Positions 10,454-63,400 of a stretch of 64,000 bases of DNA are shown one piece after another. The position numbers and the translations under genes were made by a program. Source of the DNA: Vicinamibacterales bacterium (GTDB lineage: Bacteria > Acidobacteriota > Vicinamibacteria > Vicinamibacterales > UBA8438); NCBI GenBank assembly GCA_965222905.1, contig OZ244976.1:6310815-6374814 (forward strand), read 5' to 3'. Numbering within the stretch: the first letter of the stretch is position 1; every line of letters begins with the position of its first letter. The notes beneath the pieces are model-generated. The model was not told where the DNA came from. It saw only the letters and a list, made by a program, of their open reading frames with translations, and searched no databases.

Positions 10454-10477
10454 ATATGTTGCGCGCAACATATGATC

Positions 10478-10560
10478 TGATATGTTGCGTTCGCCGTTAT
10501 GTTGCCTGGAGCCTGTAAGCCACTGTGAAATCAGGGCCCGACCTCGATCCTACGCAACAT
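10478..10560. repeat. RIT left terminal inverted repeat
   Basis: TGATATGTTGCGTTCGCCGTTATGTTGCCTG...TACGCAACAT pairs with the reverse complement of 13696-13778 with about ten mismatches. Confidence 0.85.
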
Positions 10561-10572
10561 TACGGATAGACC

Positions 10573-11452
10573 TCATAGCTTTCGCAGAAAGGCCATGACG
10601 CCGGCATCCCGCTTCCACGGCGGGGCGCCCTGTGGTTCCGCCTGATCGCAGAGCGCGATCGCTTTCGCCTTTGTCTCAAGGTCGATCTCGGCGTAGATGT
10701 TGGTCGTGTCGAGCTTGACGTGACCGAGCCACGCCCGAATCGTGTTCAGGTCCACTCCGGCGCGTAGCAGATGCGTGGCCGTGGTGTGGCGAATCACGTG
10801 CGGCCGCGCGCTCGGCGATCCGCTCCGCCAAGCCACTGGCCGTGCGGGGCCAGAGCGGACACTGGCGCAGCCTTCCGCCCTTGCCTCGTAGCGTCACAAG
10901 GGCGGCCGCCTTGCCTCCCTTGCTCAACTGCAGATCGCCGACCCGCACCTTGGCCGCTTCGTCCGCCCGGGCTCCCGTGTTGTACAAGAACAACAGCAGG
11001 ATGCTCTCGCGGCGGCCTTGGGGTGTGGCGCCGTCCGGTGCGGCGAGTAGCGCGTCGATCTCGGTCTTTTCCAAGTACGCGACCGGCTGCGGAGTCGCTT
11101 TCTTGAAGGGCAGAGCGCGGATCTGCGCGCACTATTCGACGTGAGCGGGACTGCGGCCGCCCACGAAGCGGGCGAACGCCCGGAGCGCGGTCAGCCGTTG
11201 GTTGCGGGTCTGCGGCGAGCAGCCGCGCCGGTCTTCCAGGTGTGCGAGGAATGCCAGCGCCAGCTCCGGGCTCAACTCGCGCACGACCAGCCGCTCGGCG
11301 GGCTTGCGCAGGCGGTCGGCCGCGAACGCGAGCAGCAGCTTGAAGGTGTCGCGATAGCTGAGTTGGGTGTTGCGGGCCAGATTGCGCTCGCTCACGAGGT
11401 ACTCCTCGAAGAAGCGGCGCAGCCAGGGGCCGAGCGTCTGGACATCAGGCAT
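10573..11452 (-). pseudogene. RIT third tyrosine recombinase (ritC-like), inactivated
   Basis: Starts MPDVQTLGPWLRRFFEEYL, overlapping the ritB-like stop (ATGCCTGA). In-frame TAG at 11132-11134 sits where ...PAHVE*CAQIRALPFKK reads through. A frame change and missing segment occur near 10810-10830 between LWPRTASGLAE and RPHVIRHTTATHLL. C-terminal catalytic region (HVKLDTTNIYAE) is retained. Confidence 0.8.
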
Positions 11453-18713: not shown

Positions 18714-18789
18714 GCCGGCGTAGCTCAGTTGGTAGAGCAGCTGATTCGTAATCAGCAGGTCAGCGGTTCGAGTCCGCTCGCCGGCTCCA
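18714..18789 (+). tRNA. tRNA-Thr (anticodon CGT)
   Basis: Hand-folded cloverleaf: acceptor GCCGGCG/CGCCGGC, D arm GCTC-AGTTGGTA-GAGC, anticodon stem GCTGA/TCAGC with loop TTCGTAA, T arm AGCGG-TTCGAGT-CCGCT, encoded CCA. Confidence 0.9.
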
Positions 18790-48921: not shown

Positions 48922-49535
48922 CTAGAAAAGGCTCGACTGATTCAACGGGCGGCCCGTGTACGGATCGGTCAAGACAGGGAACCGCGGCAGCCGTTCGTCG
49001 AAGTACTCGGCAATCGACCACAGCTGAAGCCGATCGTAAGGCTGGCCGGCAACATGTACCCGCCCTTCACGCTTCACGTCCGCGCGATGTTTCGCAGGGG
49101 GCGGATCCAACGTGATGAAGCACCCCACAGCGGCCGCCTCCCGTTCGAGCACGTGCCGGAAGTCCCGCAGATACGACAGGCTGAACCGCCCGCCCTTGAC
49201 CTGGGCCAGCGCCAAGCGCGAGGTCGTGTCGTCGGGTGCGAGAGCCAACGTCGCACGGCCATCGATTCCCCCATCGCCACGCTGCTTCGTGTTGGGGGCG
49301 AATCCCGGCAGGCGGGTCACGGCCCAGGTCTCGAAGCTGAAAGCGTCGTCGCGCACGAGCTTGCGCGCGCTCTCGAGATCCGCCGGGATACCCAGGGTCG
49401 CAATCCGCGAGTCCTTGAGACGCTGGTTCCGGACCAGGTCGATCGCGAAGGCCGAAATGTCGACGCCGACCCAGCGGCGCTTCAGGCGGCTCGCCGCCTC
49501 GATCGTCGTTCCGCAGCTCGAACGCCAACGACGCG
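48922..49535 (-). pseudogene. N4/N6 DNA methyltransferase C-terminus fused to Mrr-like restriction endonuclease domain (fragment)
   Basis: CGTTIEAASRLKRRWVGVDISAFAIDLV (MTase motif I region, preceded by a broken PFSG..), then FSFETWAVTRLPGFAPNTKQRGDGGIDGRA...AQVKGGRFS...AVGCFITL... (PD-(D/E)XK Mrr-like). The rest of the MTase is missing. Confidence 0.7.
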
Positions 49536-49559
49536 GCCGCTCCGCTGAACGGCCAGCCG

Positions 49560-50001
49560 CGAACCGAAGCAGCAGGCTACGAGAGCCGGACTACCCACCC
49601 GGTTCACATCCGGTCGGTCGCCCCGAACTACCCGCCCGAGTCTCATACCGTCGGTCGCCTGTGCTCCGATCGCGACACCGATGGACAGCCGACGCCCCGA
49701 ACACGGAGCCGACGCGAACCCCCGACCTCGAGCCGCGGTGTAGAAGCACAGGAACGGGACCGCGACCAGACGCATGCCGAACGGCGTACTCGGCGCGAAC
49801 TCAAGCCGGATGCGGCACGGACGCCCCGCTCCGGCGGGCCGAGAGCAGCCCGCAGAAGCCATACAACGCCGCCAAGGCAGAATCCCCCTGCGACAACCAG
49901 TCCAGGGCCGCAGGGCCGTCGACGGCGGCATGCACTCGCGCCGCACTCACGCCGCACTCACGCCGCGCGCATTGCGCATGCGCCGTGCGGGCCAGATCCT
50001 G
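49560..50001 (+). repeat. T-depleted GCATGC/CCGCAY-rich non-coding module A1 (left part, cut by IS21)
   Basis: Hand count of 49681-49740: 3 T versus 13 A per 60 nt. Shares blocks with 57799-57900 and 57108-57168. Ends with 11-bp tandem units at 49930-49973. Confidence 0.75.
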
Positions 50002-50055
50002 GTGTTCGGCGTCAACTACTTTTGCCGGTCGACGACAATTATTCTTGCCGGCGCG

Positions 50056-50346
50056 CTAGCCGTCACGCCCGAAGCCCCTGGGCAGCTCGACGGCCTCCAG
50101 TACCGACAGATCCAGATCGCAGACCTGCTCGAGCAACTCCGCGGTCGCGGACCCGTCAAGCGATTCCGGCAACGCGTCCTGCCACTGCCGGTACTGTTCC
50201 TGCAACTCCAGGAGCGTCTGCACCGCGTCGTTCCACTGCTGCGGCCGCGATCTCCGGTCCGCGGGCCGACGGTACCGGATCCGGGATTCGCCGGCCTTGC
50301 TCCGCTCCCGGTACCGTGCCTGCCGCTCCGCGTTCGTCAGCGCCAC
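50056..50346 (-). CDS. small conserved hypothetical protein (passenger inside the IS21 element)
   Basis: GTG 50346: VALTNAERQARYRERSKAG...RPQQWNDAVQTLLELQEQYRQWQDALPESLDGSATAELLEQVCDLDLSVLEAVELPRGFGRDG. Lies between istB and the left IR. Confidence 0.55.
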   Translation of the reverse strand: MALTNAERQARYRERSKAGESRIRYRRPADRRSRPQQWNDAVQTLLELQEQYRQWQDALPESLDGSATAELLEQVCDLDLSVLEAVELPRGFGRDG

Positions 50347-50717
50347 ACGACTATCCTGCACCGTTACGTAACGGACCGCGGAAGCGGTCGGCCGAGCGAT
50401 CGGGGCGCAAGCGTGGCGACAGACCCACCGCTCGGTTGCCGTCGGCATCGGTGTACACGTGCACGTTGGTCCGCGACAGCGGAGCGGCTCCCCGGCGCCG
50501 CACTTCCGGGCAGTCGAACGTGGGCCAGCCTTCCGGCTGGCCCGCAAGGGCTTCCCGCACGCTCGGCCACAGGCAGTCACCCGAAGGGCCGGAGCGTAGC
50601 GGAGGACCCGCGCAGCGGGTTGACGGCCTGTGGTTGAGTGTGCGCGAGGTAAACGTTCCGAGTGCAGCGAGGGCCTTCATAACCGCCAGCTCGCCGATGT
50701 CTCGGACTACACAGGTT

Positions 50718-51539
50718 TCAGGAAGCAGCGGGTCGACGGCGCCGCGGCAACAGCGGACCCGGCGGACGGCCACGACGTGCGGGCGGTGGTGATGGCGCCG
50801 GCGACGTCGGCCGCGACGGGTCAGTTCGATAGCTCGGCACGTCGAACTCGAGTACCACCGAGTGGTGTACCAGCCGGTCGATCGCCGCGGCAGTGGCCAT
50901 CTGGTCGCGGAAGATCCGGTCCCACTGGCTGAACACCAGGTTGCTGGTCACCATCACCGAGCGTCGCTCGTAGCGCTCGGCAAGCAGCGTGAACAGCACC
51001 TCGGCCTCGTCGGGACTCTGCTGCACGTAGCCCAGGTCGTCGGCCAGGATCACCTCAAAGAGGTCGAGCTTGCGCAGTGCCCGCGGCAGGTCGAGGTCGC
51101 GTTTGGCGCCGAGCAATTCCTGGACCAGGGCGTAGGCCGGCACGCACAACACGCTGTGGCCGGCTTCGACCAGCGCGTGCGCGACCGCGCACAACGCGTG
51201 GCTCTTGCCGACGCCCGGCAGACCGAACGCAAGCACATTGGTCGCCGTCTCGAGGAACGCTCCGGTCGCCAGCGTCTTCAACTGCTGTACGACCGGCCCC
51301 GGTAACCGGCCCGTGTCGAGCGTCTCGAACGTCTTGCCGGGCGGCAGACGCGATGCCCGTCGCAGCCGGGCAATCCGGCGCTGGCGGCGTGCTTCGGCTT
51401 CGGCCTCGAAGACTTCCAACAGCACCGGCAGCGCGTCGTGGTGACCGGCCTGCGTCAATCGCGGCACCAGCTCCTCGGACGCCGTCGTCAGGTTGAACTG
51501 CGTCAGCAGCGTCGTCACCTGCGTGCTCGGTGCCGTCAT
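50718..51539 (-). CDS. istB: IS21 helper ATPase IstB
   Basis: MTAPSTQVTTLL...NVLAFGLPGVGKSHALCAVAHAL (Walker A) ...FEVILADDLGY (Walker B) ...AIDRLVHHSVVLEF. ATGA overlap with istA. Confidence 0.88.
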   Translation of the reverse strand: MTAPSTQVTTLLTQFNLTTASEELVPRLTQAGHHDALPVLLEVFEAEAEARRQRRIARLRRASRLPPGKTFETLDTGRLPGPVVQQLKTLATGAFLETATNVLAFGLPGVGKSHALCAVAHALVEAGHSVLCVPAYALVQELLGAKRDLDLPRALRKLDLFEVILADDLGYVQQSPDEAEVLFTLLAERYERRSVMVTSNLVFSQWDRIFRDQMATAAAIDRLVHHSVVLEFDVPSYRTDPSRPTSPAPSPPPARRGRPPGPLLPRRRRPAAS

Positions 51540-53035
51540 CCTTGCAGGCCTCCGGTCAACAGCGCGTCGTACCGCGTCAGGTCCGGCCGAGGGATGTTCA
51601 CCACGGGAATGGTCGGGACCGGCGGACTCACCTCGGCCTGGACGCTGGCATAGTCGCACGCGACGCCGGCGTCGAGTCGGGCCCGAAGCGTCGCCTCGAC
51701 CTGTCCTTCACTGGTCGTGGCCGCCAAGTGCAGCAGCCGCACATACTCGACGTCGGCCCGCTCGCCGTGCGTCCGCCCGAGCGCGTCATACGCCGACCGG
51801 AAAGTCAGCGACGGAAACAGCTCTTCCCGGAAGCGATACCGGGCAAAGGCGCCCGGCTTGCGGACCAGACTCCCGATGATGTGGCGATACTCGATCCGGT
51901 GGTCCGCCGAGCCCCGCAGCCGTGGCATCGTGCACAGCACCCGGCCGCCGTAGAGGACCTCGACCGTCGACGGATGCTGGCGCGCTTCGACCGTGTGACC
52001 GATCAGGCGCGACGGCACCGAGTAGATCCGGCTGCCGATGCGAATCGTGCTCCACTTGCGCACCCGGCACTGGAACGTCGTGTACTCCGGGATCCGCGCC
52101 GCCGGCAACGGCCGCAGAGACAGACGCTCCTCGGCCAGCCGAGCCGCCGCCGGCCTGTTCCGCTCCTCGTCGACGACCGCACGCACGAAGCCCAGATACG
52201 CCGACTCGTCCGCGAAGTCTCTTTCGCCCCGCAACAGCAACGCCTGCTCGATGGCCGTCTTCGTGCGGAAGTGCGCCTGCTCGGCCACCCCGTTCTCGTG
52301 CGGTTTCCCCGGCTGGATCCGCGACGAGTCCAGCCCGTAGTGGTCCAGCACTTGCCGGAACCGCGCCGTCAACTGACGCCCACCGCTGCGTTTCAGCTCG
52401 TGCGTCGCCGCCGACAGGTTGTCGTGACGGAGCACTGCCGGCACCGCGCCCAGCATCCACAGCGCCCCCTGCAGGCCCGCCACCAGCGCCTCGAACGTCT
52501 CGCTCAGCGCCAGTCCCACATACGTCCACTTGCTGTAGCTCAGCACCCACTCGAACAGCAGGTGCGCGAACGGCACGCCCCGGATCGTCACCCGCAGGTC
52601 GCTCGCGTCGGTGAAGTCAAACGCCGCTTCCCGGCCCGGGACCGCCACCTGCTCGAAGTACACCTCGCGGTCCGCACCGTACTGCACCCGCCAGTCGCGG
52701 ACCCGCCGCTGCAGCGTCCGTAGCTGTCCCTCCTGAAAGCGACCCGGATGCCGCCGGCACAGCGCCTTGAACAGCGTCAGCACCTGCAGCCGGCCGTCGG
52801 TGTCGGCCGCCAGCTGCGGCACCACCTCCGACTCCCACACCTCGGCGAACGGGTCTTCCCGCGTCCGCCACGTCCGCGGCCCCTTCGCCGTCGACGGCAA
52901 CGCGCCGCTCTGCCACTGTCGCGCTGTCCGCTCGCTCATTCCCGCGGCCGCCGCGGCCGCCGCCAACGTCTTCCCCGACATCCGTTTCTCTCGCAATCGT
53001 CGAACCTGCGCATCCGTGACCAACCCGTCCTCCAC
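51536..53035 (-). CDS. istA: IS21 transposase IstA
   Basis: GTG 53035: VEDGLVTDAQVRRLREKRMSGKTLAAAAAAAGMSERTARQW (HTH) ...AFDFTDASDLRVTI...RHDNLSAATHE...PGKPHENGVAEQAHFRTK (DDE). Confidence 0.88.
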   Translation of the reverse strand: MEDGLVTDAQVRRLREKRMSGKTLAAAAAAAGMSERTARQWQSGALPSTAKGPRTWRTREDPFAEVWESEVVPQLAADTDGRLQVLTLFKALCRRHPGRFQEGQLRTLQRRVRDWRVQYGADREVYFEQVAVPGREAAFDFTDASDLRVTIRGVPFAHLLFEWVLSYSKWTYVGLALSETFEALVAGLQGALWMLGAVPAVLRHDNLSAATHELKRSGGRQLTARFRQVLDHYGLDSSRIQPGKPHENGVAEQAHFRTKTAIEQALLLRGERDFADESAYLGFVRAVVDEERNRPAAARLAEERLSLRPLPAARIPEYTTFQCRVRKWSTIRIGSRIYSVPSRLIGHTVEARQHPSTVEVLYGGRVLCTMPRLRGSADHRIEYRHIIGSLVRKPGAFARYRFREELFPSLTFRSAYDALGRTHGERADVEYVRLLHLAATTSEGQVEATLRARLDAGVACDYASVQAEVSPPVPTIPVVNIPRPDLTRYDALLTGGLQG

Positions 53036-53127
53036 GAGGAAAACGGGCAGTCTCACACGACTCTGGGTGGGTCCACGAACCGGCGATCGCGTCCTCGGCA
53101 ACCGGCAGAAATAATTGTCGTTGATCA

Positions 53128-53440
53128 CCTGGCACGCCGCCGTCACAACGCATCCAGAATGACCGTGCGCCGATGGCAAACAGACGGCGGCGCAACGGCG
53201 GCGTACAGGCAGAGTCACGGCGGCGGGCCTGCAAAGCGACCCCGGCATGCACCCGCGGCGCATGCAGAAACACTCCGATCTGCAGGCATGCCGCACGCCA
53301 CGTGCGTGCCCGCCGCCGGCACGCCGCCGGCAAACCCGAGTTCACGACCGACGAGCGGAGCGACAAGACCCGCGCACTGGACAAAGCCGCAGAACAAGAG
53401 CAGAGTCAGCGGCGGACCGAACAGAGGAAGAGATCATCAT
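53128..53440 (+). repeat. T-depleted module A1 (right part)
   Basis: CACGCCGCCGTCACAACGCATCCAGA...GGCAAACCCGAGTTCACGACCGACGAGCGGAGCGA is a close direct repeat of 53955-54200. Confidence 0.75.
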
Positions 53441-53476
53441 GCCCCTACCACAGGAACAGCAGCGTTACTCATCGGC

Positions 53477-53749
53477 GTGATAGCCGCGACAGTCGCGTGC
53501 ATGGCGTGGCTGAAGCCGGCAACCGGGTCAAGGGCGGACAACATCGCCGGCGGCGTGATCGCGCTCGTCGGATTCCCGCTGGCCACCCTGCGCATCGTGC
53601 AAGCGGCCTGGGCCGAGATAGCGACGGTGACGATCATCATGTGGGTCCTGACAGTCGGGTTCACACGAGGCCGGGAGACCGTGATCTGGACGATCGCGGC
53701 GTGGTCCGGAACAGCCATCCTCGGATGGATGGCACAGATCGGCGTGTAA
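53477..53749 (+). CDS. small hypothetical membrane protein
   Basis: GTG-start 90-aa ORF with hydrophobic helices (GGVIALVGFPLATLRIV; IATVTIIMWVLTVGF; IWTIAAWSGTAILGWMAQIGV). A GAGGAAGAG RBS and an ATG lie 40 nt upstream in another frame, so the start or frame is uncertain. Confidence 0.4.
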   Translation: MIAATVACMAWLKPATGSRADNIAGGVIALVGFPLATLRIVQAAWAEIATVTIIMWVLTVGFTRGRETVIWTIAAWSGTAILGWMAQIGV

Positions 53750-54210
53750 ACGCCTCGAGCCGATAGCCAAGCCGGAACCGGACCGTGCAAGCCGGCGAAA
53801 CGCCGGCCGGCGAACACGACCCGAACCACATCCGACTCCCCCGCCTCCACGGCCGCGAACCCGAGGGGTTCAAGCAAACGACGGCGGCATGCACTCACGC
53901 CGCACTCGCGCCGCACTCGCGCCGCACTCATTTCGCATGCGCCGTGGATGCCACAGCCGGGCACGCCGCCGTCACAACGCATCCAGACCGACGGCGCGCC
54001 GACCGCAGAGAGATAGCGGCGCAACGGCGGCGTACACGCCAAGTCACGGCGGCATGCCGGCAAGGCGGCCCCGGCATGCACCCGCGCCGCATGCAGAATC
54101 ACTGCGATCTGCCGGCGCGCCGCACGCCACGTGCGTGCCCGCCGCCGGCACCCCGCCAGCAAACCCGAGTTCACGACCGACGAGCGGAGCGAGCAGCGGT
54201 TGCCTGTTCC
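53750..54210 (+). repeat. T-depleted module A2 (uninterrupted paralogue of A1)
   Basis: Contains 11-bp tandem units at 53889-53932 and the empty IS21 target site ...GATGCCACAGCCGG|GCACGCCGCCGTCACAACG. Confidence 0.75.
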
Positions 54211-54335
54211 AGCAACGGCGTGTGCTCCGTCAGCATCGGCCCGTCGGCATGTCGGCCACCCGGCCCGTCAGGCTTCCAGATGTGGAGGCCGTTGCCGAAA
54301 CGCTGCATGTGCAACCCGCACGCACATTCGATTGC

Positions 54336-56817
54336 CTAGCCCTACCCTGTACCCACATTATTCGTTCTGGACAACTCCAGCACGCTCCCGCCGTCCAATG
54401 CGGTAGCCGATGGTTGCGATGGACATTCGTTCGTAACCGCGCCACATGATCTGGTGTCCGGGGGGCGGGTCGTGCGTGCGGTTCTGGTAGCCGCCGAGGA
54501 TGGCGAGCAGGAGGACTGCGGCGGCGAGATGGTCAGGGGGCGACAGGCCGAGTTCTTCGGCATAGTCGGTCAGGAAACGCAACTCGATGTCGGTGAACAG
54601 CAACTGGGCGTCGCACCCCGGCAGGTCACGACCGAGCAGGGTCATCACCATCAGGCGCCAGGCGATCACGGTCTGGATGGTGACCGCGCGTTGGAGCCGG
54701 TCGGCGGTGTGGAACGCGAGATGTTCGACTCGGCATCCGGACTTGAGCACCCGGAACAGGTCTTCGATGCGCCAGCGCCGCAGGTAGTAGCCGATGACCG
54801 CGACCGCGGTTTCGGTGCTGTCGACGTCGAGGCTGGTGAGCAGGAACCACTCGACCGCCGGCTCACCGGGCGGCGGCGCGGTTTCGCGCACATGGACCGT
54901 TGACAGCGCCACCGGTTCGGCGCCGGCGAGGGTCGGCGGCGCCACCACCTGGCGATGGCGCACCTCGGCCCGCGCCACCCGCCCGGTGCGCGCCGGGCGG
55001 GCCTGCCTGCCGCTGGATTTGCGCCGCGCGCTCAGGCGGTCGACCTCGATCTCGACGTGCCCGTCGGCGGCGCCGGCGCGCATGGCGGCGAACAGCTTCG
55101 GGGCGCCCTTGGCGAGACAGCGGTCATGGTGGGCGCGCACCAGCACTTCCACCCGGTTCAGACGGCGCTGCTCATCGAACACCGCGAAGCAATCCGCCTC
55201 GCGGTCCATGACGCTGAGCACCCGCGTCTTGCGGCTCAACGCCGCCGCCGCCCGGTCGATGTCGCGCAGCCCGTCGACCCAGCGCCGCGTCTTGGGGGCC
55301 GTCTCCTGCGCCGCCTTGGGGGCTTCCTGCGCCGTCTTGGGGGCCGTCTCCTGCGCCGCCGCCGGCGGTGGCTCGTCCGCCGGGCGCGCCGCGCCGCCCG
55401 GCGGCGCCTCGAAACCGCAGCGCAGCACGCCCAGCGGCAGACCCGCGCCATCGACCGCCAGGGTCAGATGCAGATGCAGGCCGAGCGTCTTCGAGACCGT
55501 CTGGTTGCGCCCGATGATGCCCAGCCCCTCGCAGTTGGGGCGCGTCGCAAAGTTCAGATCCGTCCCGTCCTGGATGCACAGCACCGTGTCCTGGCCGCGC
55601 ATCCGCTGCAGCGTGCGCGCCCGGTGCGGCGCGAGAATGTTCCCGGGCGTGACCGCCGACGACACCGGCTGGTCGATGAGCCGGTAGTAGCCCTTGACCG
55701 CCGCGCGGTCGTGGGGACGCGTTGGCGGTGATCGCCTCGCCGGGCAACGACGCCAGCAGCCCCGCGCTCTTGACCAGACGCGCCGACAACCGCTGATCGC
55801 CCAACGGCGCCCCTCCAAACTCGTTCCCCGTCCAGGCACCGCTGTCGAGCCCGTCAGCCGGCGCCAGCGCCGGCGCCGCGTCGACCCGCGCCACCCCCAA
55901 CCGCCGCCGCCAGTGCGGCTCCAACTCGTACATATATACCGACTTGACCGGACGAGCCCGCGCGTGGTCGCGGTCCTGGCGCCCGCGACCGGCCGTCTGG
56001 CCGACCCACACGAAGTTGGCCGCCTTGAAGCTGGCCCCGTCATGCGCGGGGCCGACGAAGGTCTCCACCAGCCACGGACGATACTGGTAGCGGGCTTCGA
56101 AATCCTCCGCCACACGCGCCAGCACCTGGCCCAGCACCTGGCTGGCCAGGTTGCGGCATTGCACCCCGGGGCGGATCAGGAACCGGCTCAGGCACAGCAC
56201 CCGGTGCAGATGGGCTTGGCGTTGCTCAGCGCTCCATCCCATCCACGCCTCGCGCGCCCGCAATTGCAACGCCGCGGCCGAAAACCCGACCGCGCCCAGC
56301 ACCCCGTGCGCCGAGACCACCAGATAGCGAACCTGGCAGCCCGCAAAGGTCGTCGTCCCCTGCGGATGCTCGAAGTGCAGCAAGGTATTCCACACCCGGC
56401 GCTGCCCGCCTTGCTCTACCAGCTCCAGCGACAACCCCGCGACCGCCTCCACCGTACCCGGCACCGCCGTGGCCGCCGCCACCGGCGCGTCGAAACGCTG
56501 CGGCATCGGCGCGCCCCCGCCGCGCCGCGACGCCGGCAACGCAATCCGCCCCGCCTTGTGCAGCGTGTTGAGCGCCTTGAGACAACCCGCGAGTTGGGCC
56601 GACCCGCGCGCATCGACAAACCCGAACTCCGCGCACACCCGCCGCCCCACCGCCGCTCGGTTGTTCAGCGACTCCTGCGACACAATCCGCTCGAGGCGAG
56701 CTTGCGACTCCGGCGCACGAAGCGTCTGTAGTATCTGGTTCTGGTGCTCCATGCCGTGACGCTACACGGCGGAAGCTGATTTGTCCAGCCCTGAATGCGG
56801 GTACAAGGCAGGCCTAG
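54336..56817 (-). mobile_element. IS4/Tn5-like insertion sequence (2482 bp)
   Basis: Imperfect inverted repeats CTAGCCCTACCCTGTACCCACATT (54336-) and AATGCGGGTACAAGGCAGGCCTAG (-56817), about 20 of 24 matching. No clear target duplication. Confidence 0.7.
54358..56752 (-). pseudogene. DUF4338-like domain fused to Tn5-type DDE transposase, one frameshift
   Basis: N-part (frame of 55172..56752): WMGWSAEQRQAHLHRVLCLSRFLIRPGVQCRNLASQVL...PWLVETFV...FKAANFVWVGQTAGRGRQDR. Frame change near 55705-55715 (..ITANASP / HDRAAVKGYYRLIDQP). C-part: VLCIQDGTDLNF...VLSVMDREADCF...YYLRRWRIEDLFRVLKSGCRVE. Confidence 0.75.
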
Positions 56818-57049
56818 CCGTGTTCCAGAGGAGGATGCTCGGTTCCGCACCGAGGACATTACAGCCGCGTCTCGACCCACATCAGCGCCCCTGGCGCATG
56901 CAGCGATTCCGGATTTTCACACGTCGAGTGCATGTGGTACGGCAGGCTCTCGATCACCTGACTGCTCTTCCTGGTCGCTTCCATGGGCCTTGATTCTACT
57001 GCGCGCCGCTCTTGATCCGGCGACCGCAACCCGAACCACCGCCGAATCA

Positions 57050-59438
57050 CCGGCCGGCACGGCCCTGAACCCAGGAGCCTGAAACGAAGGCCCGGGAGAA
57101 GACGCAACCGCGTTGTAGAAGCGCAGGAACGACGCCGGGACCCGACGCATACAGAACGGCGTACCCACGTCGAGGCCAGGCAGCAGGCACGCCCCGCACA
57201 GGCGCGCCGAGAAGCGGCCCGCATGCAGAACGACGCCACGCCGCCGTCGGCAGGACCGCGGCAACAACGCCCAATGCACGCACGCCGACGGCGGCGCGCA
57301 TGCAGAACGACGCCACGCCGCCGTCGGCAAGACCGCGGCAACAACGCCCAATGCGGGCGGGGGCTGTACGGCGTGACCGCGATCTGAATGCGGCATGCAC
57401 TGACGGCGCGTCCACTTTGCGCGAAACCCTCCGGTCACGGTCCGCACGAGCTTCAGGCCGAACCAGCTGTCCGCGCCGTGACCACCCAACCCGCAACGAC
57501 GGGAACCAGGCACAACCGCGTCAGCCAGTCGAGGCCGCCGCGGCCGATCAGAAAGCCAGGAACAAGACACAACGAAGTCTTGCCGAACCGAATCCAGGCC
57601 AGCAACAACGGCGTCCGGCAGCCTCGGCTGGAGCACGCGGCGATGCGGCCGAAAACCGCCGGCACTCCCCCACCCCAAACCCCGAGCCAAGAGCTGCGAA
57701 CGAATACCGCGGCAACACCACAGCGCATACGGTTGCTCGAACGCCAAGGACGCAGCCGCGGCGCGGAACGGCGAGCCGCCAACGGCAGGAACAGGCCGGA
57801 GAGACCGGTACTACCCGCCCGGATCACATGCGGTCCGTCGCCCGAAACTGCCTGCCCGAAGCTCATGCCGTCTGTCGACTGCCCTCCGATCACGACACCA
57901 CGCATACGGTTACCGGAACGACACCGCACCGGCACGCCGAGAGCACCACGCGGGTACGCCGCACGCACGCCGATGGCAAAGGGCACGCAACAGGCATGCG
58001 GCGTACAGGCGGCGGCGGGGCACCCCGACCGCATAGTGCATGCGGCATGCAGTGGTGCCGCACGCATTATGCAGGCGGCGCGCAGTGGCGGGGACCGCAC
58101 ACGGATCCTGCCCCGACCGCATACGGACCAACCAAGCAGAGGTCGGAGCGGACGAACCATCGAGCAGCGGAACCGCCGAGCATTCCAAAGCCGGCCCGGG
58201 ACGACTTGCCCACTCGAGCCCGGAACCACTAGCGCTCGGCGGAGACCGCCGCGGCGACAACGCGCATGGAGCTATCAGAAGCACGCCAGAGCAGGGGAGA
58301 AACGACCCAGTCCACCGGGGCGGTAACGCATGAAGCGCGGCACGACGGCTCGGGGAAAAGGGCGTCGACACTGTCGCGTAGGCCGTTGACCAAGCGACGG
58401 CCCCCGACGAATGCCGATGGACCGACCAAACGCATGCGCCCCCTCGAAAGGGCGGCCGGCAGCCAAGGAGCGAAACCGATAGGGCCGCGAACCAGCAACG
58501 CGGACCGCCCCTGCCAGGTCGACTGGTGCGTCTCGCTCGTCCTGGACGAGTACTCCGCAGAGTGCGTCGTGCACCGGACGTATCCAGCGGAGAGCCGAAC
58601 GGATGGCCAGGTGGAACCCGACGGGAAATAGCCAGGTTTGGTGCTGGCCAAAAGGCATGCGCCCCGCGTACCGGCCGTACGCACGTTCACGGCAAAGGGC
58701 GATCAGATAGGGGTCACGTTGACACGGCGCCGCACCGGTGCCGCACGCATGCCGCACTCGGCATGCCCGATGTACCGGATCAGTTCGACGCGGAAATCAG
58801 TGCCCACTGCGTGCAGGAGGGGTGCACGCCGCATCCCCGCCGCATCCCCGCCGCGTACGGCGTGTACGCAAAGTGACGTCAGACTGCAGGTACCACACGA
58901 GGAGAGCCATGGGATCCTGAACCACCGAAGAGGCAAGCTGGGGCAAGGCCCACAACGCACCACCAGCCGCCGAGAGCATCCGGAGACCTCGCTGAATCCG
59001 CGAACGGATCAGAACCCCAGTAATCGAGGACCTGGCGTCAAGACCTCACGCGAGGCAACACCCACGAGAGGCATGCTGCACCAGGCGCAGGCTCAGAACG
59101 AAACAGCCCCACACGCCCGGCAGCCGCGCCGCACTCGGCACAACCGCATGCCGTACGCAAGTTGATCGCGGAATGCGTACAGCCCGCACGCATAGTGCAT
59201 GTACGCCGCACGCGGCACGACCGCACCCTGACCGCATCCGACCCGTCAACTGGACGGGCCGCATCACGCGGACGGGGCACGCAGCGGGCGTGCACGCCGC
59301 ACTCGGCATGCCCGCAAGCCGCACCCAATTTGCTACGGGTCTGCGTGCCAACTGCACGCACAATGCATGTACGCCGCCCGCGGCGCGACGGCATCCTGAC
59401 GTCACCGGACCCAACAACCGGGCGCAACGCATGCAGAG
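57050..59438 (+). repeat. T-depleted GCATGC/CCGCAY-rich non-coding module A3 (2.4 kb)
   Basis: Hand counts: 57301-57360 has 3 T versus 15 A; 57661-57720 has 3 T versus 18 A per 60 nt. All three plus-strand frames are open for hundreds of codons because stops are depleted. No RBS or start context and no recognisable protein. Confidence 0.75.
57221..57354 (+). repeat. 77-bp tandem duplication inside module A3
   Basis: GCATGCAGAACGACGCCACGCCGCCGTCGGCA(G/A)GACCGCGGCAACAACGCCCAATGC occurs at 57221-57277 and again at 57298-57354 (one mismatch). Confidence 0.85.
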
Positions 59439-59816
59439 CTAGCCGTCCTCCTCCGGCACGCGCCCGGCAACCGCAGAACTGCGCTGATCGACGCGAGCAC
59501 CGTCCTCGTCGTCCTCCTCGAACACGACAGGGACAAGGGTTCCCTGCCGCCGACCGTGGTAACGATCGTCGGCACGCCCGTGAGCACGCGCGCCACGGAC
59601 CGAAAGGCCCCGTACACGGGCGCTGACCAACTCATCGAAGACCTGGGGCAACCCCTTCGAGAACGCCACGCGCAACAACCAGCTGCGCGACACCCCGTGC
59701 TCGACACAGAGCTGATCGATGCGGTTGAGCTGCTCGGTGTTGAACCGCACCTTCACGACATGCCGGTACGCCTGCCAGCGAGGCGCGTCAACAGGGGAGT
59801 CGGCCATCCTTGCCAC
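59439..59816 (-). CDS. ribbon-helix-helix protein (MobC/CopG-like)
   Basis: VKVRFNTEQLNRIDQLCVEHGVSRSWLLRVAFSKG is an RHH beta-alpha-alpha unit; acidic tail. ATG at 59807 is an alternative start. Confidence 0.6.
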   Translation of the reverse strand: MARMADSPVDAPRWQAYRHVVKVRFNTEQLNRIDQLCVEHGVSRSWLLRVAFSKGLPQVFDELVSARVRGLSVRGARAHGRADDRYHGRRQGTLVPVVFEEDDEDGARVDQRSSAVAGRVPEEDG

Positions 59817-59819
59817 CTG

Positions 59820-60275
59820 CTAGGGGAGATCATCCGGCGGCTCCTGGCCTGGAACGGCAACCAGATTCCCGTCGTGAGAAGCATAAAGCGAATCAACCAG
59901 CGCTTCGAAGTCAATAGCGTCAGGCTGCACGCCAGGCAAGTACGTCGGAAGCTCCGCAATGAGAGCATCGCGGAGCGCATCCGGCTGCAACGCCGGATTC
60001 ACCCGCAGAAGCGTCTGCCCAAAAAGGATCACCTTGCGCTGTTGCGCCGTCGCCGGCGCGCGACGACGGCCAAAATAGACACCCTCTGGACGCGGGAAAA
60101 GGCGTGATCCCTGCCCCTGCCGCTTGGGCGTAAACTTCTTCGCGGCATCGTCGATCCCCGCAACAACGGCGGCCGACACGACCACCGACCGCGACACTGC
60201 AGAGCGCTCGGCAACACGGTCGACCTGGCTCAGCACACCCGGATCCATGTAGATCACAACTCTCGTCTTCGGCAT
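59820..60275 (-). CDS. ribbon-helix-helix protein (CopG/Arc-like)
   Basis: ATG 60275 behind a GGGAGG RBS: MPKTRVVIYMDPGVLSQVDRVAERSAVSRSVVVSAAVVAGI (RHH); ~110-aa C-terminal extension. Confidence 0.6.
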   Translation of the reverse strand: MPKTRVVIYMDPGVLSQVDRVAERSAVSRSVVVSAAVVAGIDDAAKKFTPKRQGQGSRLFPRPEGVYFGRRRAPATAQQRKVILFGQTLLRVNPALQPDALRDALIAELPTYLPGVQPDAIDFEALVDSLYASHDGNLVAVPGQEPPDDLP

Positions 60276-60555
60276 CCAGACCTCCCACGCCACCCACGAA
60301 CGTAGCCGCAGGCAGCGCCCGTTTCGGGTTCAAATGTACCACACAGGCTGTCGGCCCGTGCACGTACTCCCGCTGGCACAGGGGCTGTCAGCTAATGCCC
60401 GTTAAAAAACGTGCTGAGTTAGCGCGGTTTCTGTTAGCGCGGTGCCGTTCCCGCGCTGGCGCGGGCGCTGCCTGCATAGTCTAGTGCCTAGTGTTGTTCC
60501 AGGCGCTGTCAGCATTAGTACGTGCACCTGTACCGCATTATGTATTAGTGCCCAT

Positions 60556-61669
60556 TGGGGTATCCATTTAACCGGAGTCAGCGGTGTACCCTGGGGCGAT
60601 GGATCGCCCTCGCGCCGGTGCGCACTATCCGAGATCCGTGGGCGAGTTCCAGGCATGGTTCCAGAGCGACGAGGACTGCCTGGACTACCTGGAGTGGCTG
60701 CGGTGGCCGGCGGGCTTCGCATGCTTGGTCTGTGGCCACCAGGCAGCGTGGCGCCTCGGCGACGGCCGACTGATGTGCTCCGGGTGCGGGAACCGTTCCT
60801 CGGTGACCGCGGGCACGATCTTCGACCGTACGCGAACGCCGTTGACGGTTTGGTTCAACGCCTGCTGGCTGTTCGCCAGCGGCAAGGACGGGATTTCGGC
60901 ACTGAGTCTGAAACGGACGTTGGAAATTGGTTCCTATCAGACGGCGTGGACGATGCTGCATCGGCTTCGCGCGGTGCTGGTACGTCCAGGGCGGGAACGA
61001 TTGGCCGGGATGGTACAGGTGGATGAGACCTACATCGGTGGTGTGGAGCCGGACCTGCCCGGTGGCCGAGCTCAGGGCAAGAAGGTCCTGACCGGCGTAG
61101 CAGTCGAGGTCCGGGAGCCGAAAGGGATGGGCCGGTGCCGTATGGCGCCTCTCGCCGACGCCTCCGCGGCCTCGCTGCATCAGTTCGTGACCGATCACCT
61201 TGAACCGGGCGCGACGGTCGTGACCGACGGCTGGCAGGGGTACAGGGGACTCGACAGGCTCGGGTACTCCCACGTCAGGCACAGTCAGCGAGCCGCCCGA
61301 TTCCGTGGCGAGGATCCCGGCAAGCTACTTCCCGCCGTACATCAGGTCATCTCGCTGGCCAAGCGGTGGCTGCTCGGCACCCATCAGGGGGCCGCGGACG
61401 ACGCACATTTGGCCAGCTACCTCAACGAGTTCGTGTTCCGCTTCAATCGTCGGCGTTCTCGCAGCCGGGGGATGCTGTTCTTTCGGGTTCTCGAACTCGC
61501 CGTCGCCCACGATCCCGTGCGCTACCATGACCTCATCGCCAGCCGTCGGCCGCGGAAAGTCCCGCCAACACCGCCACTCGTGCGTGGCCGCCCGCCGAGC
61601 TTGGCGCGGCCACCGGCGAACCGCCCGTGGAGAATGGCGTCGGGATACTCCGGTTAAATGGATACCCCA
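60556..61669 (+). mobile_element. IS1595-family insertion sequence
   Basis: Perfect 23-bp inverted repeats TGGGGTATCCATTTAACCGGAGT (60556-60578) and ACTCCGGTTAAATGGATACCCCA (61647-61669). AGTGCCCAT flanks both sides (60547-60555 and 61672-61680, the latter offset by GC). Confidence 0.88.
60584..61657 (+). CDS. IS1595-family transposase
   Basis: EDCLDYLEWLRWPAGFACLVCGH...CSGCGNRSSVTAGTIF (Zn-ribbon) ...VQVDETYIGG...VVTDGWQGYRGL...YLNEFVFRFNRR. Confidence 0.9.
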   Translation: MYPGAMDRPRAGAHYPRSVGEFQAWFQSDEDCLDYLEWLRWPAGFACLVCGHQAAWRLGDGRLMCSGCGNRSSVTAGTIFDRTRTPLTVWFNACWLFASGKDGISALSLKRTLEIGSYQTAWTMLHRLRAVLVRPGRERLAGMVQVDETYIGGVEPDLPGGRAQGKKVLTGVAVEVREPKGMGRCRMAPLADASAASLHQFVTDHLEPGATVVTDGWQGYRGLDRLGYSHVRHSQRAARFRGEDPGKLLPAVHQVISLAKRWLLGTHQGAADDAHLASYLNEFVFRFNRRRSRSRGMLFFRVLELAVAHDPVRYHDLIASRRPRKVPPTPPLVRGRPPSLARPPANRPWRMASGYSG

Positions 61670-62115: not shown

Positions 62116-62508
62116 ATGCGAAAGACATGCACGATCTCGATTCCGACCTGGTATCCGGACGACTACGCCGAGCAGCTCGGGGTGCTGGCCGAGCGCCTCG
62201 GCTTCGCCAGCCGGTCCGAGTTTCTGGTCGCTCTGGCCGACCGGGCGGTCCAGGCGACCGGACTGTACGCGCTCGGATTCTCGCGCGGCGTCGAGGCCGG
62301 AATGGAGCTGCGCGCCGCACGCGACGAGCGCCAAATGGAGTTGCACCGGCTCACCAACGAGTACGCCGAAGCCGGCGCCGACGTGCTGAGCGCGATGAAG
62401 CGCGCAGCGCAAGAGGAGACCGGCGCCAAGGGAATTGGCGTACAGCGCCGGATCCTGAGCGAGCAGTTCCGCACCGACGAAGACGTGCTCGCGGACGAGG
62501 ACTCATAG
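62116..62508 (+). CDS. ribbon-helix-helix protein
   Basis: MRKTCTISIPTWYPDDYAEQLGVLAERLGFASRSEFLVALADRAV (RHH) plus a coiled-coil-like tail. Divergent from the 59439-60275 RHH pair. Confidence 0.6.
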   Translation: MRKTCTISIPTWYPDDYAEQLGVLAERLGFASRSEFLVALADRAVQATGLYALGFSRGVEAGMELRAARDERQMELHRLTNEYAEAGADVLSAMKRAAQEETGAKGIGVQRRILSEQFRTDEDVLADEDS

Positions 62509-62509
62509 G

Positions 62510-63400
62510 CAGGTTCCGAACCCAAGCCATCACGGTCGACGAAACCTGATGGCCGAGACGACAAGACCGGCGCCCGGCGCCGCGGCCAGGAGCAGGCGGC
62601 CAAGACCGGCAGAGAGCGCCTGAACCCTCTGCAACTCGAAGGCGGCTTCGAGAAGCCGCGACGGATGACCTCAAGCACGGCAGCGAAGTGCAGACAGCCG
62701 CCCGGGCCGGCGGCCGAGCGGCCGGCCAACCCAAGGGCCGAGGCGGCAACCTGCCAACTGAATCGCCAGGAACAGAAAACGGCCTGAGACGCCGCAGAGA
62801 GCCCGCGAGCCGCCAACAAGCCCCGAAGACACCCGGAACGGGCACGACGGGCCACCAGCAGGCCCTGAACGCGTCAGAGCCAGATCCAGGACAGGTGGGG
62901 AAGACGAAGACGCACTCGGGACCCAATCGGCCGCTCCAAGCGCGGTCCGAGGCCCACCTCCGGCCAGGGGAAAGCCAGGTCGGAACGAACCACGGACTCA
63001 GCACGCGAGCGGCTCGGAAACGCGAGGCAGAAAGCGAGACGATCTGCCGAGTGCAGAAGACGTGCACAATGCCGGCAAGTTGCCAGCCAAGGGACCGCAC
63101 CGGGCGTGCGGCACGATCCCGGCATGCACGCACAACGCGTGCGGCAGGCTCGGACCACCAGTGCCCGCCGGGTGCGGGGGCCGGGCACGCCGAGTGCAAA
63201 GGGCGATCACGCCGAGTGCATCTTGCACCCAGGGCGACAGCAGTACCGGTGCGGCACGCATGGTGTTTGCGGGCGGCGCGCAGGCACGCCGCCCGCGGCA
63301 TGATGGCGAGTTGCATGTACGCCGTACACAAGTCGATCGCGGCGTGCACACACTCTGGAGCGGCGCGCACGGCAACGCACCTGGATCCGGATCGGGCGGG
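62510..63400 (+). repeat. T-depleted module A4
   Basis: 62701-62760 has 2 T versus 10 A per 60 nt. Its right end shares ordered blocks with the right end of A3: CAAAGGGCGATCA 63197 vs 58693; ACCGGTGCNGCACGCATG 63245 vs 58733; GCATGTACGCCG 63313 vs 59197/59365. Confidence 0.7.

Follow-up and report, generated by a model that had tools for sequence, protein, structure and literature searches.

Helically phased 11-bp repeats in an acidobacterial integrative and conjugative element as candidate binding sites for ribbon-helix-helix proteins

Phased direct repeats that act as operators or centromeres are an established theme. In R1, parC consists of two sets of five 11-bp iterons, each taking about one ParR dimer (PMC2241845). 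In R388, the stbDR arrays comprise 2, 3 or 5 repeats with an 11-bp period at leading-region promoters and have no nucleoside triphosphatase (NTPase) partner (bioRxiv 10.1101/2022.04.29.490116); a single protein, StbA, is both repressor and centromere binder, with no dedicated partition NTPase (bioRxiv 10.1101/2022.04.29.490116; PMC3098194). ParG on parH-OF (TP228) and omega (pSM19035) are small ribbon-helix-helix (RHH) proteins that coat arrays of short degenerate boxes, and in pSM19035 several dispersed arrays double as operators and centromeres (PMC3130281). Here we describe four clusters of 11-bp direct repeats with the core CCGCAY in a stretch of 64,000 nucleotides (the window; C2:6310815-6374814, C2 being contig OZ244976.1) of the 9.35-Mb, 68% GC genome of a Vicinamibacterales bacterium. 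They lie in an integrative and conjugative element (ICE), in non-coding modules close to genes for RHH proteins. We suggest that they are helically phased, cis-acting protein-binding sites of an operator- or centromere-like kind, with the RHH proteins of the element as the probable binders. As judged from the sequence, the probability of this reading is roughly 50%.

The initial annotation placed the arrays at 49930-49973, 53889-53932, 58730-58762 and 58829-58861, and the sequences quoted there match the letters of the window exactly. Array 1 (49930-49973, + strand, as are all four) consists of direct repeats of GCACTCACGCC with period 11 in 3.2 copies; Tandem Repeats Finder (TRF) delimits it at 49932-49966, with 95% matches. 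Array 2 (53889-53932; TRF 53891-53930, period 11) has the same unit in 3.6 copies. Array 3 (58730-58762; TRF 58725-58757, period 11, 3.0 copies) contains three CCGCAC cores at 11-bp spacing, with spacers that differ, and array 4 (58829-58861; TRF 58827-58854, period 11, 2.5 copies) contains two copies of CCGCATCCCCG and a degenerate third unit. The last unit is degenerate in arrays 1 and 4 (CCGCGC and CCGCGT), and the first 'unit' of arrays 1 and 2 overlaps a GCATGC palindrome. Arrays 1 and 2 are not independent, since both are copies of one larger repeat (49920-50002 and 53879-53961, 86–91% identical). The whole repeated unit that bears them is ~470 bp long, and array 2 sits in its intact ('empty site') copy. 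All arrays share one direction, following the polarity of the AT skew.

The arrays are real and non-random. An autocorrelation of 5-mers over the non-coding modules, with insertion sequences (IS) removed, has its maximum at lag 11 (z=27.6), followed by 22 and 33; four random genomic controls have their maxima at multiples of 3, as in coding sequence. There are 13 pairs of CCGCAY cores separated by 11, 22 or 33 bp, where 0.77 would be expected, and in 2000 random placements this number was never attained. TRF run on the entire 9.35-Mb genome reports 27 period-11 arrays with at least 2.9 copies, three of which fall in this 9-kb stretch and hold the best match scores of the 27. The claimed enrichment and 11-bp phasing are thus highly significant. 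The kilobases beginning at 58001 and 59001 contain 9 and 10 CCGCAY copies, compared with a genome mean of 1.09 per kb, and between 58 and 60 kb these are nearly all on the + strand. Two further statements of the initial annotation also hold: the arrays do stand in T-depleted DNA (AT skew +0.3 to +0.7), and isolated CCGCAY copies are indeed frequent, most of them within a 168-bp tandem duplication (59110-59432, + strand) directly 3' of the gene for RHH1, which also contains several GCATGC sites.

RHH1 (59439-59816, - strand) is a CopG-type RHH protein with an acidic tail and is encoded by the second gene of an RHH2-RHH1 pair. RHH2 (59820-60275, - strand), the first gene of the pair, is modelled by AlphaFold (pLDDT 68) with an RHH-like beta-alpha-alpha fold at its N-terminus and a three-helix C-terminal domain. 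RHH3 (62116-62508, + strand) is divergent from the pair across a control region interrupted by an IS1595-type element (about 60557-61668). The three had been described as RHH genes. This holds for RHH1, which passes the Pfam RHH_1 profile (PF01402) with 21.0 bits against a cut-off of 20.5; RHH3 is below threshold and RHH2 has no Pfam hit. None of these proteins matches the ParR, ParG or omega families in Pfam, NCBIfam, PDB sequences or Foldseek; in particular, no PDB sequence matched the RHH1 profile significantly, and a Foldseek search of PDB with the RHH2 model gave no informative match. RHH3 was also considered as a binder specific to the arrays, on the grounds of covariation: in the three sequences compared, its β-strand reads KTCTISIP in the window and in contig L015 and RTFTVSVP in contig L016.

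The RHH2-RHH1 pair occurs at four loci in this genome, the other three having 29–46% protein identity to the window pair. It is also found in the metagenome contigs L015 (302 kb), L016 (417 kb), L017 (12 kb) and L018 (1 Mb), with RHH2 identities of 59–76%, and in L019 and L020. Among related genomes a search with the RHH2 protein matched one congener (G009) and no other. The RHH1 profile, searched against genome contigs, found two loci, in one Vicinamibacterales (Acidobacteriota) metagenome-assembled genome, both of a distant subfamily described below.

The closest relative of the region is L015, which is collinear with the window from RHH3 across all the modules at 74–95% nucleotide identity, in reverse orientation, and in which the strand of the arrays relative to RHH2-RHH1 is identical. 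The counterparts of arrays 1 and 2 (3.2 and 3.6 copies) are arrays of GCGCGAGTGCG in 4.9 and 4.2 copies. Array 3 is nearly unchanged (L015 11990-12022), and array 4 is shorter by exactly one 11-bp unit, as it also is in an environmental variant (run X5). L015 has additional period-11 arrays with other units (TGCCTGCGGCG in 4.4 copies, TGCCGGCGGCG and CGCCGCATGCC); periods of 11 or 22 make up 11 of its 20 TRF rows, with at least six different unit sequences of GCGGCG-type core, and its lag-11 self-similarity has z=34. In the aligned modules of the window and L015 (83% identity), 25 of 28 GYATGC sites, 22 of 26 GCGGCG sites and 21 of 31 RTGCGG sites are retained. This retention of 68–89%, compared with 39–44% for background 6-mers, indicates that the motif cores are conserved well beyond their surroundings.

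These comparisons bear directly on neutral replication slippage, by which an 11-mer with a GCGGCG core would have been re-duplicated time after time in the quickly changing, skewed and functionless DNA of a decaying, IS-ridden ICE, and the apparent conservation would reflect the short divergence from L015. In arrays 1, 2 and 4 the tandem repeats are almost perfect, arrays 1 and 2 represent a single unit in duplicate, the window, L015 and X5 differ from one another in copy number by whole units, and the region has been invaded by three IS elements, all of which are as slippage would have it, as are the lack of arrays in L016 and L018 and the presence of the same tandem 11-mer in unrelated contigs (both discussed below). 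However, slippage does not account for the difference in retention between cores and background 6-mers. Nor does array 3 resemble a recent slippage product, because its core and phase are fixed while its spacers have diverged. Period 11 moreover recurs with several different units, which slippage alone does not predict, and three of the 27 period-11 arrays of the genome lie within 9 kb. Finally, the arrays are tied to GCATGC, a motif conserved and enriched in all four related loci. We therefore consider slippage a somewhat unlikely origin, and the arrays most likely to be functional.

The GCATGC palindrome was not mentioned in the initial annotation. It brackets array 1 (49928 and 49976) and array 2 (53887 and 53935), and two sites overlap array 3. 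Its density reaches its genome-wide peak here, with 12 copies per 2 kb against a mean of 0.6. Enrichment of G(C/T)ATGC(G), together with strong depletion of A on the RHH sense strand, is common to the window, L015, L016 and L018. Since GCATGC is a palindrome, recognition of duplex DNA is indicated. Two other roles for the motifs were considered and rejected. As a restriction or methylation site GCATGC would be expected to be avoided in mobile DNA, the opposite of its ~20-fold enrichment here. A Chi-like polar motif is not supported by the genome counts of GAGTGCGG (250) and CCGCACTC (223), which are below a rough composition expectation of ~370; GTGCGGC is at expectation.

The distant subfamily, made up of the three paralogous loci in this genome together with L019 and L020, also has an A-depleted flank downstream of RHH1. 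Neither 11-bp arrays nor an excess of GCATGC is found at any of these five loci. Instead, the 570 bp directly 3' of RHH1 contain 25 copies of CGCCACG/CGTGGCG, against about one expected per motif, many of which form an 18-bp palindrome, TACGCCACGCGTGGCGTA. These clusters (C2:604973-605600; C2:4698430 downward; C2:4940120 downward; L019 about 10460-11080) lie 3' of the paralogous RHH2-RHH1 genes, in the same position relative to the pair as the CCGCAY/GCATGC cluster of the window. One of these paralogous pairs is encoded at C2:604169-604972. The layout of an RHH pair followed by a dense cluster of short sites is thus conserved, while the type of site differs with the proteins. Because the site changes when the proteins change, the clusters would appear to be the cognate DNA of the RHH pair, as far as co-occurrence can indicate. 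The distant subfamily has in addition tandem repeats of 81–126 bp (2.4–2.6 copies) rich in the palindrome GCGTTAACGC, all of them upstream of the RHH2 paralogues, at L019 8368-9030, at L020 8342-9019 and at a distance of about 500–800 bp at the three paralogous loci (P1 to P3); they are candidate operators or iterons of that subfamily.

On the basis of these observations, we hypothesise that a small DNA-binding protein coats one face of the DNA cooperatively. The arrays have one core in every 11 bp, or about one per helical turn (CCGCAY on the + strand, RTGCGG on the RHH sense strand), so that successive cores would be presented on the same face of the duplex. The GCATGC sites that adjoin or overlap the arrays could serve for nucleation or for the binding of a partner. 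The likeliest binders would be the RHH proteins of the ICE itself, in the first place RHH2-RHH1, whose operon ends where the motif cluster is densest; binding of this pair to the arrays is suggested by the arrangement of the sequence. The arrays would belong to a family of repeated non-coding modules that may form a maintenance or establishment region of the ICE, with a role in repression of neighbouring cassette genes, in NTPase-independent positioning of the excised element, or in both.

Several findings weigh against this hypothesis. By our calculation, base composition alone makes the G-rich core ~2.7-fold commoner on this strand, and perfect tandem units that change in copy number fit simple slippage as well. 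No ParA or ParM gene accompanies the RHH pair, the operon consisting of RHH2-RHH1 only in all copies, which counts against a par locus; a tblastn search of the island (15-110 kb) with the ParA encoded 8 kb from the pair in L016 gave no match. Rather than at the promoter of the RHH operon, the arrays are found on its 3' side, at distances of up to 9 kb, and the RHH3/RHH2 intergenic control region, which has GGGCACGTGCC and CACTAG motifs, contains neither CCGCAY nor GCATGC. A scan of metagenomes for two tandem units returned 58 loci, all unrelated and with GC contents of 28–74%; these contigs hold the same 11-mer doubled or tripled, with no skew, no GCATGC enrichment and no RHH genes, and serve as a caution about the base rate of such repeats. 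The most direct difficulty comes from L016 and L018. Their RHH1 proteins are 75–80% identical to that of the window and have the same HVVKVRF strand, and their RHH2 proteins are 59–72% identical, yet phased core pairs in these contigs number no more than one or two (lag-11 z=3.2 in L016, none in L018), and the modules downstream of RHH1 have drifted past recognition by BLAST. The expectation that homologous RHH loci carry the arrays is consequently borne out in L015, in the same orientation, and fails in L016 and L018, which are almost without them. Since these two keep the proteins without the arrays, phased arrays are a feature of the window/L015 lineage and no constant partner of the RHH family. 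They are therefore either dispensable for the RHH1 family or a lineage-specific elaboration.

How far the comparison with known systems can be taken is clear from the details. The resemblance to R1 lies in direct repeats of exactly 11 bp, which in R1 are bound cooperatively by RHH dimers on one face of the helix. Unlike the arrays here, parC flanks the par promoter and acts with the actin-like ParM, and its sets of about five iterons are larger and less dispersed than the 2.5–5 units found in this family of arrays. ParG and omega share with the present case the fixed short period of the tandem repeats and an RHH-fold gene (here RHH1) beside them. Their boxes are however spaced at 8 bp (ParG) and 7 bp (omega), not 11, their spacers are AT-rich where the arrays here are GC-rich, and both have a ParA-type partner. 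The array unit here contains ACTC, a further resemblance that is probably a coincidence.

The R388 system is the closer functional parallel, more so than R1 ParR/parC. In both R388 and the present ICE, small arrays with an 11-bp period are scattered over several intergenic sites among small genes of a conjugative element; here at least four of them occur in about 5 kb of DNA once IS are discounted. The differences are in the protein and in the position and sequence of the sites. StbA binds through a helix-turn-helix (HTH) domain, while the candidates here are RHH proteins, and no HTH protein of the StbA family was found among the neighbouring proteins scanned with Pfam and NCBIfam. The stbS site is in the stbA promoter beside oriT, and not 3' of the operon as here; the R388 motif is YTGCATCAT, compared with RTGCGGCG plus GCATGC in the window; and the host phylum is different. 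The proposal that the arrays are of the ParR, ParG or omega type is accordingly sound as an analogy with R1 parC and fails as a statement of membership, there being no ParA or ParM, no arrays at the RHH promoter, and almost no phased arrays in L016 and L018. Because the NTPase, the promoter location and the StbA-type HTH are all missing, the locus is better described as one that works like these systems than as one of them.

The uniform polarity of the arrays raises another question, namely whether the repeats act in single strands. They could be priming or promoter signals in single-stranded DNA (ssDNA) on a transferred or rolling-circle strand, or repeats within a long A-poor RHH2-RHH1 transcript. 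All arrays follow the strong AT skew, and the core inverts where the skew flips at ~63.2 kb. The ICE has genes for a type IV secretion system, and the neighbours in L016 (single-stranded DNA-binding protein, uracil-DNA glycosylase, orphan methyltransferases and Toprim) are reminiscent of a leading region. Transitions among environmental variants, described below, are mostly at + strand purines, as though one strand were often single-stranded. On the other side, the ssDNA folds modestly better than shuffled sequence (z -2.3, -2.7 and -3.8), forming many small local hairpins and no long hairpin of the Frpo or attC kind. An Rfam scan of the whole window matched a tRNA and no other family, repeat numbers vary, which is at odds with a defined fold, the element yielded neither a relaxase nor an oriT, a search for RNA runs came up empty, and GCATGC is a palindrome of the duplex type. 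Signals of this kind are in our view improbable, and binding to duplex DNA remains the explanation that we favour.

The skew itself has features worth recording. On the + strand it falls from about +0.6 to negative values at about 63.2-63.3 kb, where the core motif is inverted, and stays negative for the next 7 kb (to window-equivalent 70100, counting on beyond the end of the window), a stretch that takes in 1 kb of non-coding DNA at 68.1-69.1 kb with a skew of -0.6. A comparable switch occurs in paralogue P2, ~1.9 kb upstream of RHH2, and in L015 at position ~8.0 kb. In the modules of the window, L015, L016 and L018, TAG and TAA are much rarer than expected on the A-poor RHH sense strand (observed/expected 0–0.33), and the A's that are left on this strand concentrate in CAT and TAC contexts. 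An open frame of 701 codons in the A-poor DNA of L018 (10919-13024) is probably no gene. In runs X2, X5 and X6, compared with window positions 56800-60600, A>G and G>A on the + strand outnumber T>C and C>T about threefold (in X6, 44 and 29 against 13 and 11). The skew may thus have its source in a mutation process that acts unequally on the two strands.

A skew switch near direct repeats in a mobile element might also suggest a replication origin, with the repeats serving as iterons for a Rep initiator once the element is excised. Origin iterons are typically 17–22 bp long, for which 11 bp is short. Instead of forming a single origin cluster, the arrays occupy four or more separate places within several kb, and they are away from the switch at ~63.2 kb. 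No Rep-like protein was found among the open reading frames (ORFs) tested in and beyond 53-71 kb, which cover part of the island. An origin is thus very improbable.

The arrays lie in three of four modules (A to D), all given on the + strand. Module A (49516-50002) contains array 1 and resumes at 53133, beyond an IS21-family insertion (50003-53132, - strand) that interrupts the first of the two copies of the repeated unit. Module B (53133-54335) contains two copies of a 236-bp repeat, together with array 2, on either side of a small ORF (about 53476-53750). Module C (56818-59438) is T-poor and extends from a Tn5-like IS to RHH1, and module D (62509-63400), also T-poor, is where the core motif is inverted and the AT skew changes sign (63.0-63.3 kb). 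Both the IS21-family insertion and the Tn5-like IS (54336-56817, - strand) are outside the system. Without insertion sequences, the array-bearing DNA amounts to ~4.5 kb and has 22% A and 9% T on the + strand. Module C also contains a 77-bp tandem repeat (57214-57354, + strand) in two copies, each with a TTCTGCATGCG site, which is present in 4.9 copies in L015. It is 82% identical to L015 11057-14262, and the indels between the two (1, 2, 4, 5, 11, 16, 209 and 422 bp) mark it as non-coding. Hidden coding sequence in the modules can be discarded more generally, the indels between the window and L015 being mostly non-triplet and no ORF passing a GC3/GC2 coding filter. Scanning for sigma-70 promoters and terminators was uninformative. 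No copies of the modules were found elsewhere in this genome, and DNA searches of 60 related genomes found no relatives.

It is worth adding that the Tn5-like IS truncates a Zn-ribbon cassette gene at 56817, leaving an N-terminal remnant (56859-57000, - strand) homologous to L015 15723-16109. A 29-bp segment of the IS21-insertion region matches a second genomic locus (C2:4860275-4860303). IS abound in this genome, where a single 2.7-kb element accounts for more than 60 nearly identical copies, and they are also dense around the paralogous RHH loci.

The arrays are placed within an ICE of ~88 kb at tRNA-Thr because they lie between two copies of an att repeat, together with an integrase and VirB3/VirB4-like genes. 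The 3' 66 bp of the tRNA-Thr gene (18714-18789) recur ~88 kb downstream at window-equivalent 106534-106599, next to a tyrosine integrase gene (105128-106300), and VirB3, a VirB4-like ATPase, a topoisomerase and a DUF3631 protein are encoded between the two copies. There are more copies of this 66-bp sequence in the genome (C2:6747197, 4859547 and others), which suggests that several islands use this att site. About 25 bp past the att repeat is a near-perfect period-11 array of three copies of CCGTGTCACCA (C2:6417439-6417471, window-equivalent 106625-106657), which may represent arm-type sites of the integrase or Xis.

Acidobacteriota are among the most abundant bacteria in soil, and their mobile elements are barely characterised. 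We know of no maintenance or regulatory system that has been defined for them. If the arrays are products of slippage, the finding is an ordinary one. What is new is most likely that a known theme, the operator or centromere built of phased direct repeats, recurs as a variant in an ICE of Acidobacteriota that has yet to be characterised. A bolder proposal, and an unlikely one in our estimation, is that RHH2-RHH1 and the several kb of strand-skewed, motif-laden non-coding DNA behind it together constitute an undescribed cis/trans module of Acidobacteriota, an NTPase-less platform for positioning, silencing or establishment, whose sites have co-evolved with the proteins in each subfamily (RTGCGGCG arrays plus GCATGC in one, TACGCCACGCGTGGCGTA in the other) and whose orientation is tied to the switch in composition polarity. 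Should the arrays dock the RHH pair, this would be a compact cis/trans pair, amounting to a probe of 33–55 bp and proteins of 120–150 residues, and the two subfamilies with their different motifs would offer a natural basis for a specificity swap. It would shed light on how such ICEs are kept, silenced or established, and would show that the rule known from R1 ParR and R388 StbA, by which each helical turn takes one small protein, holds for a new protein family and a new phylum as well.

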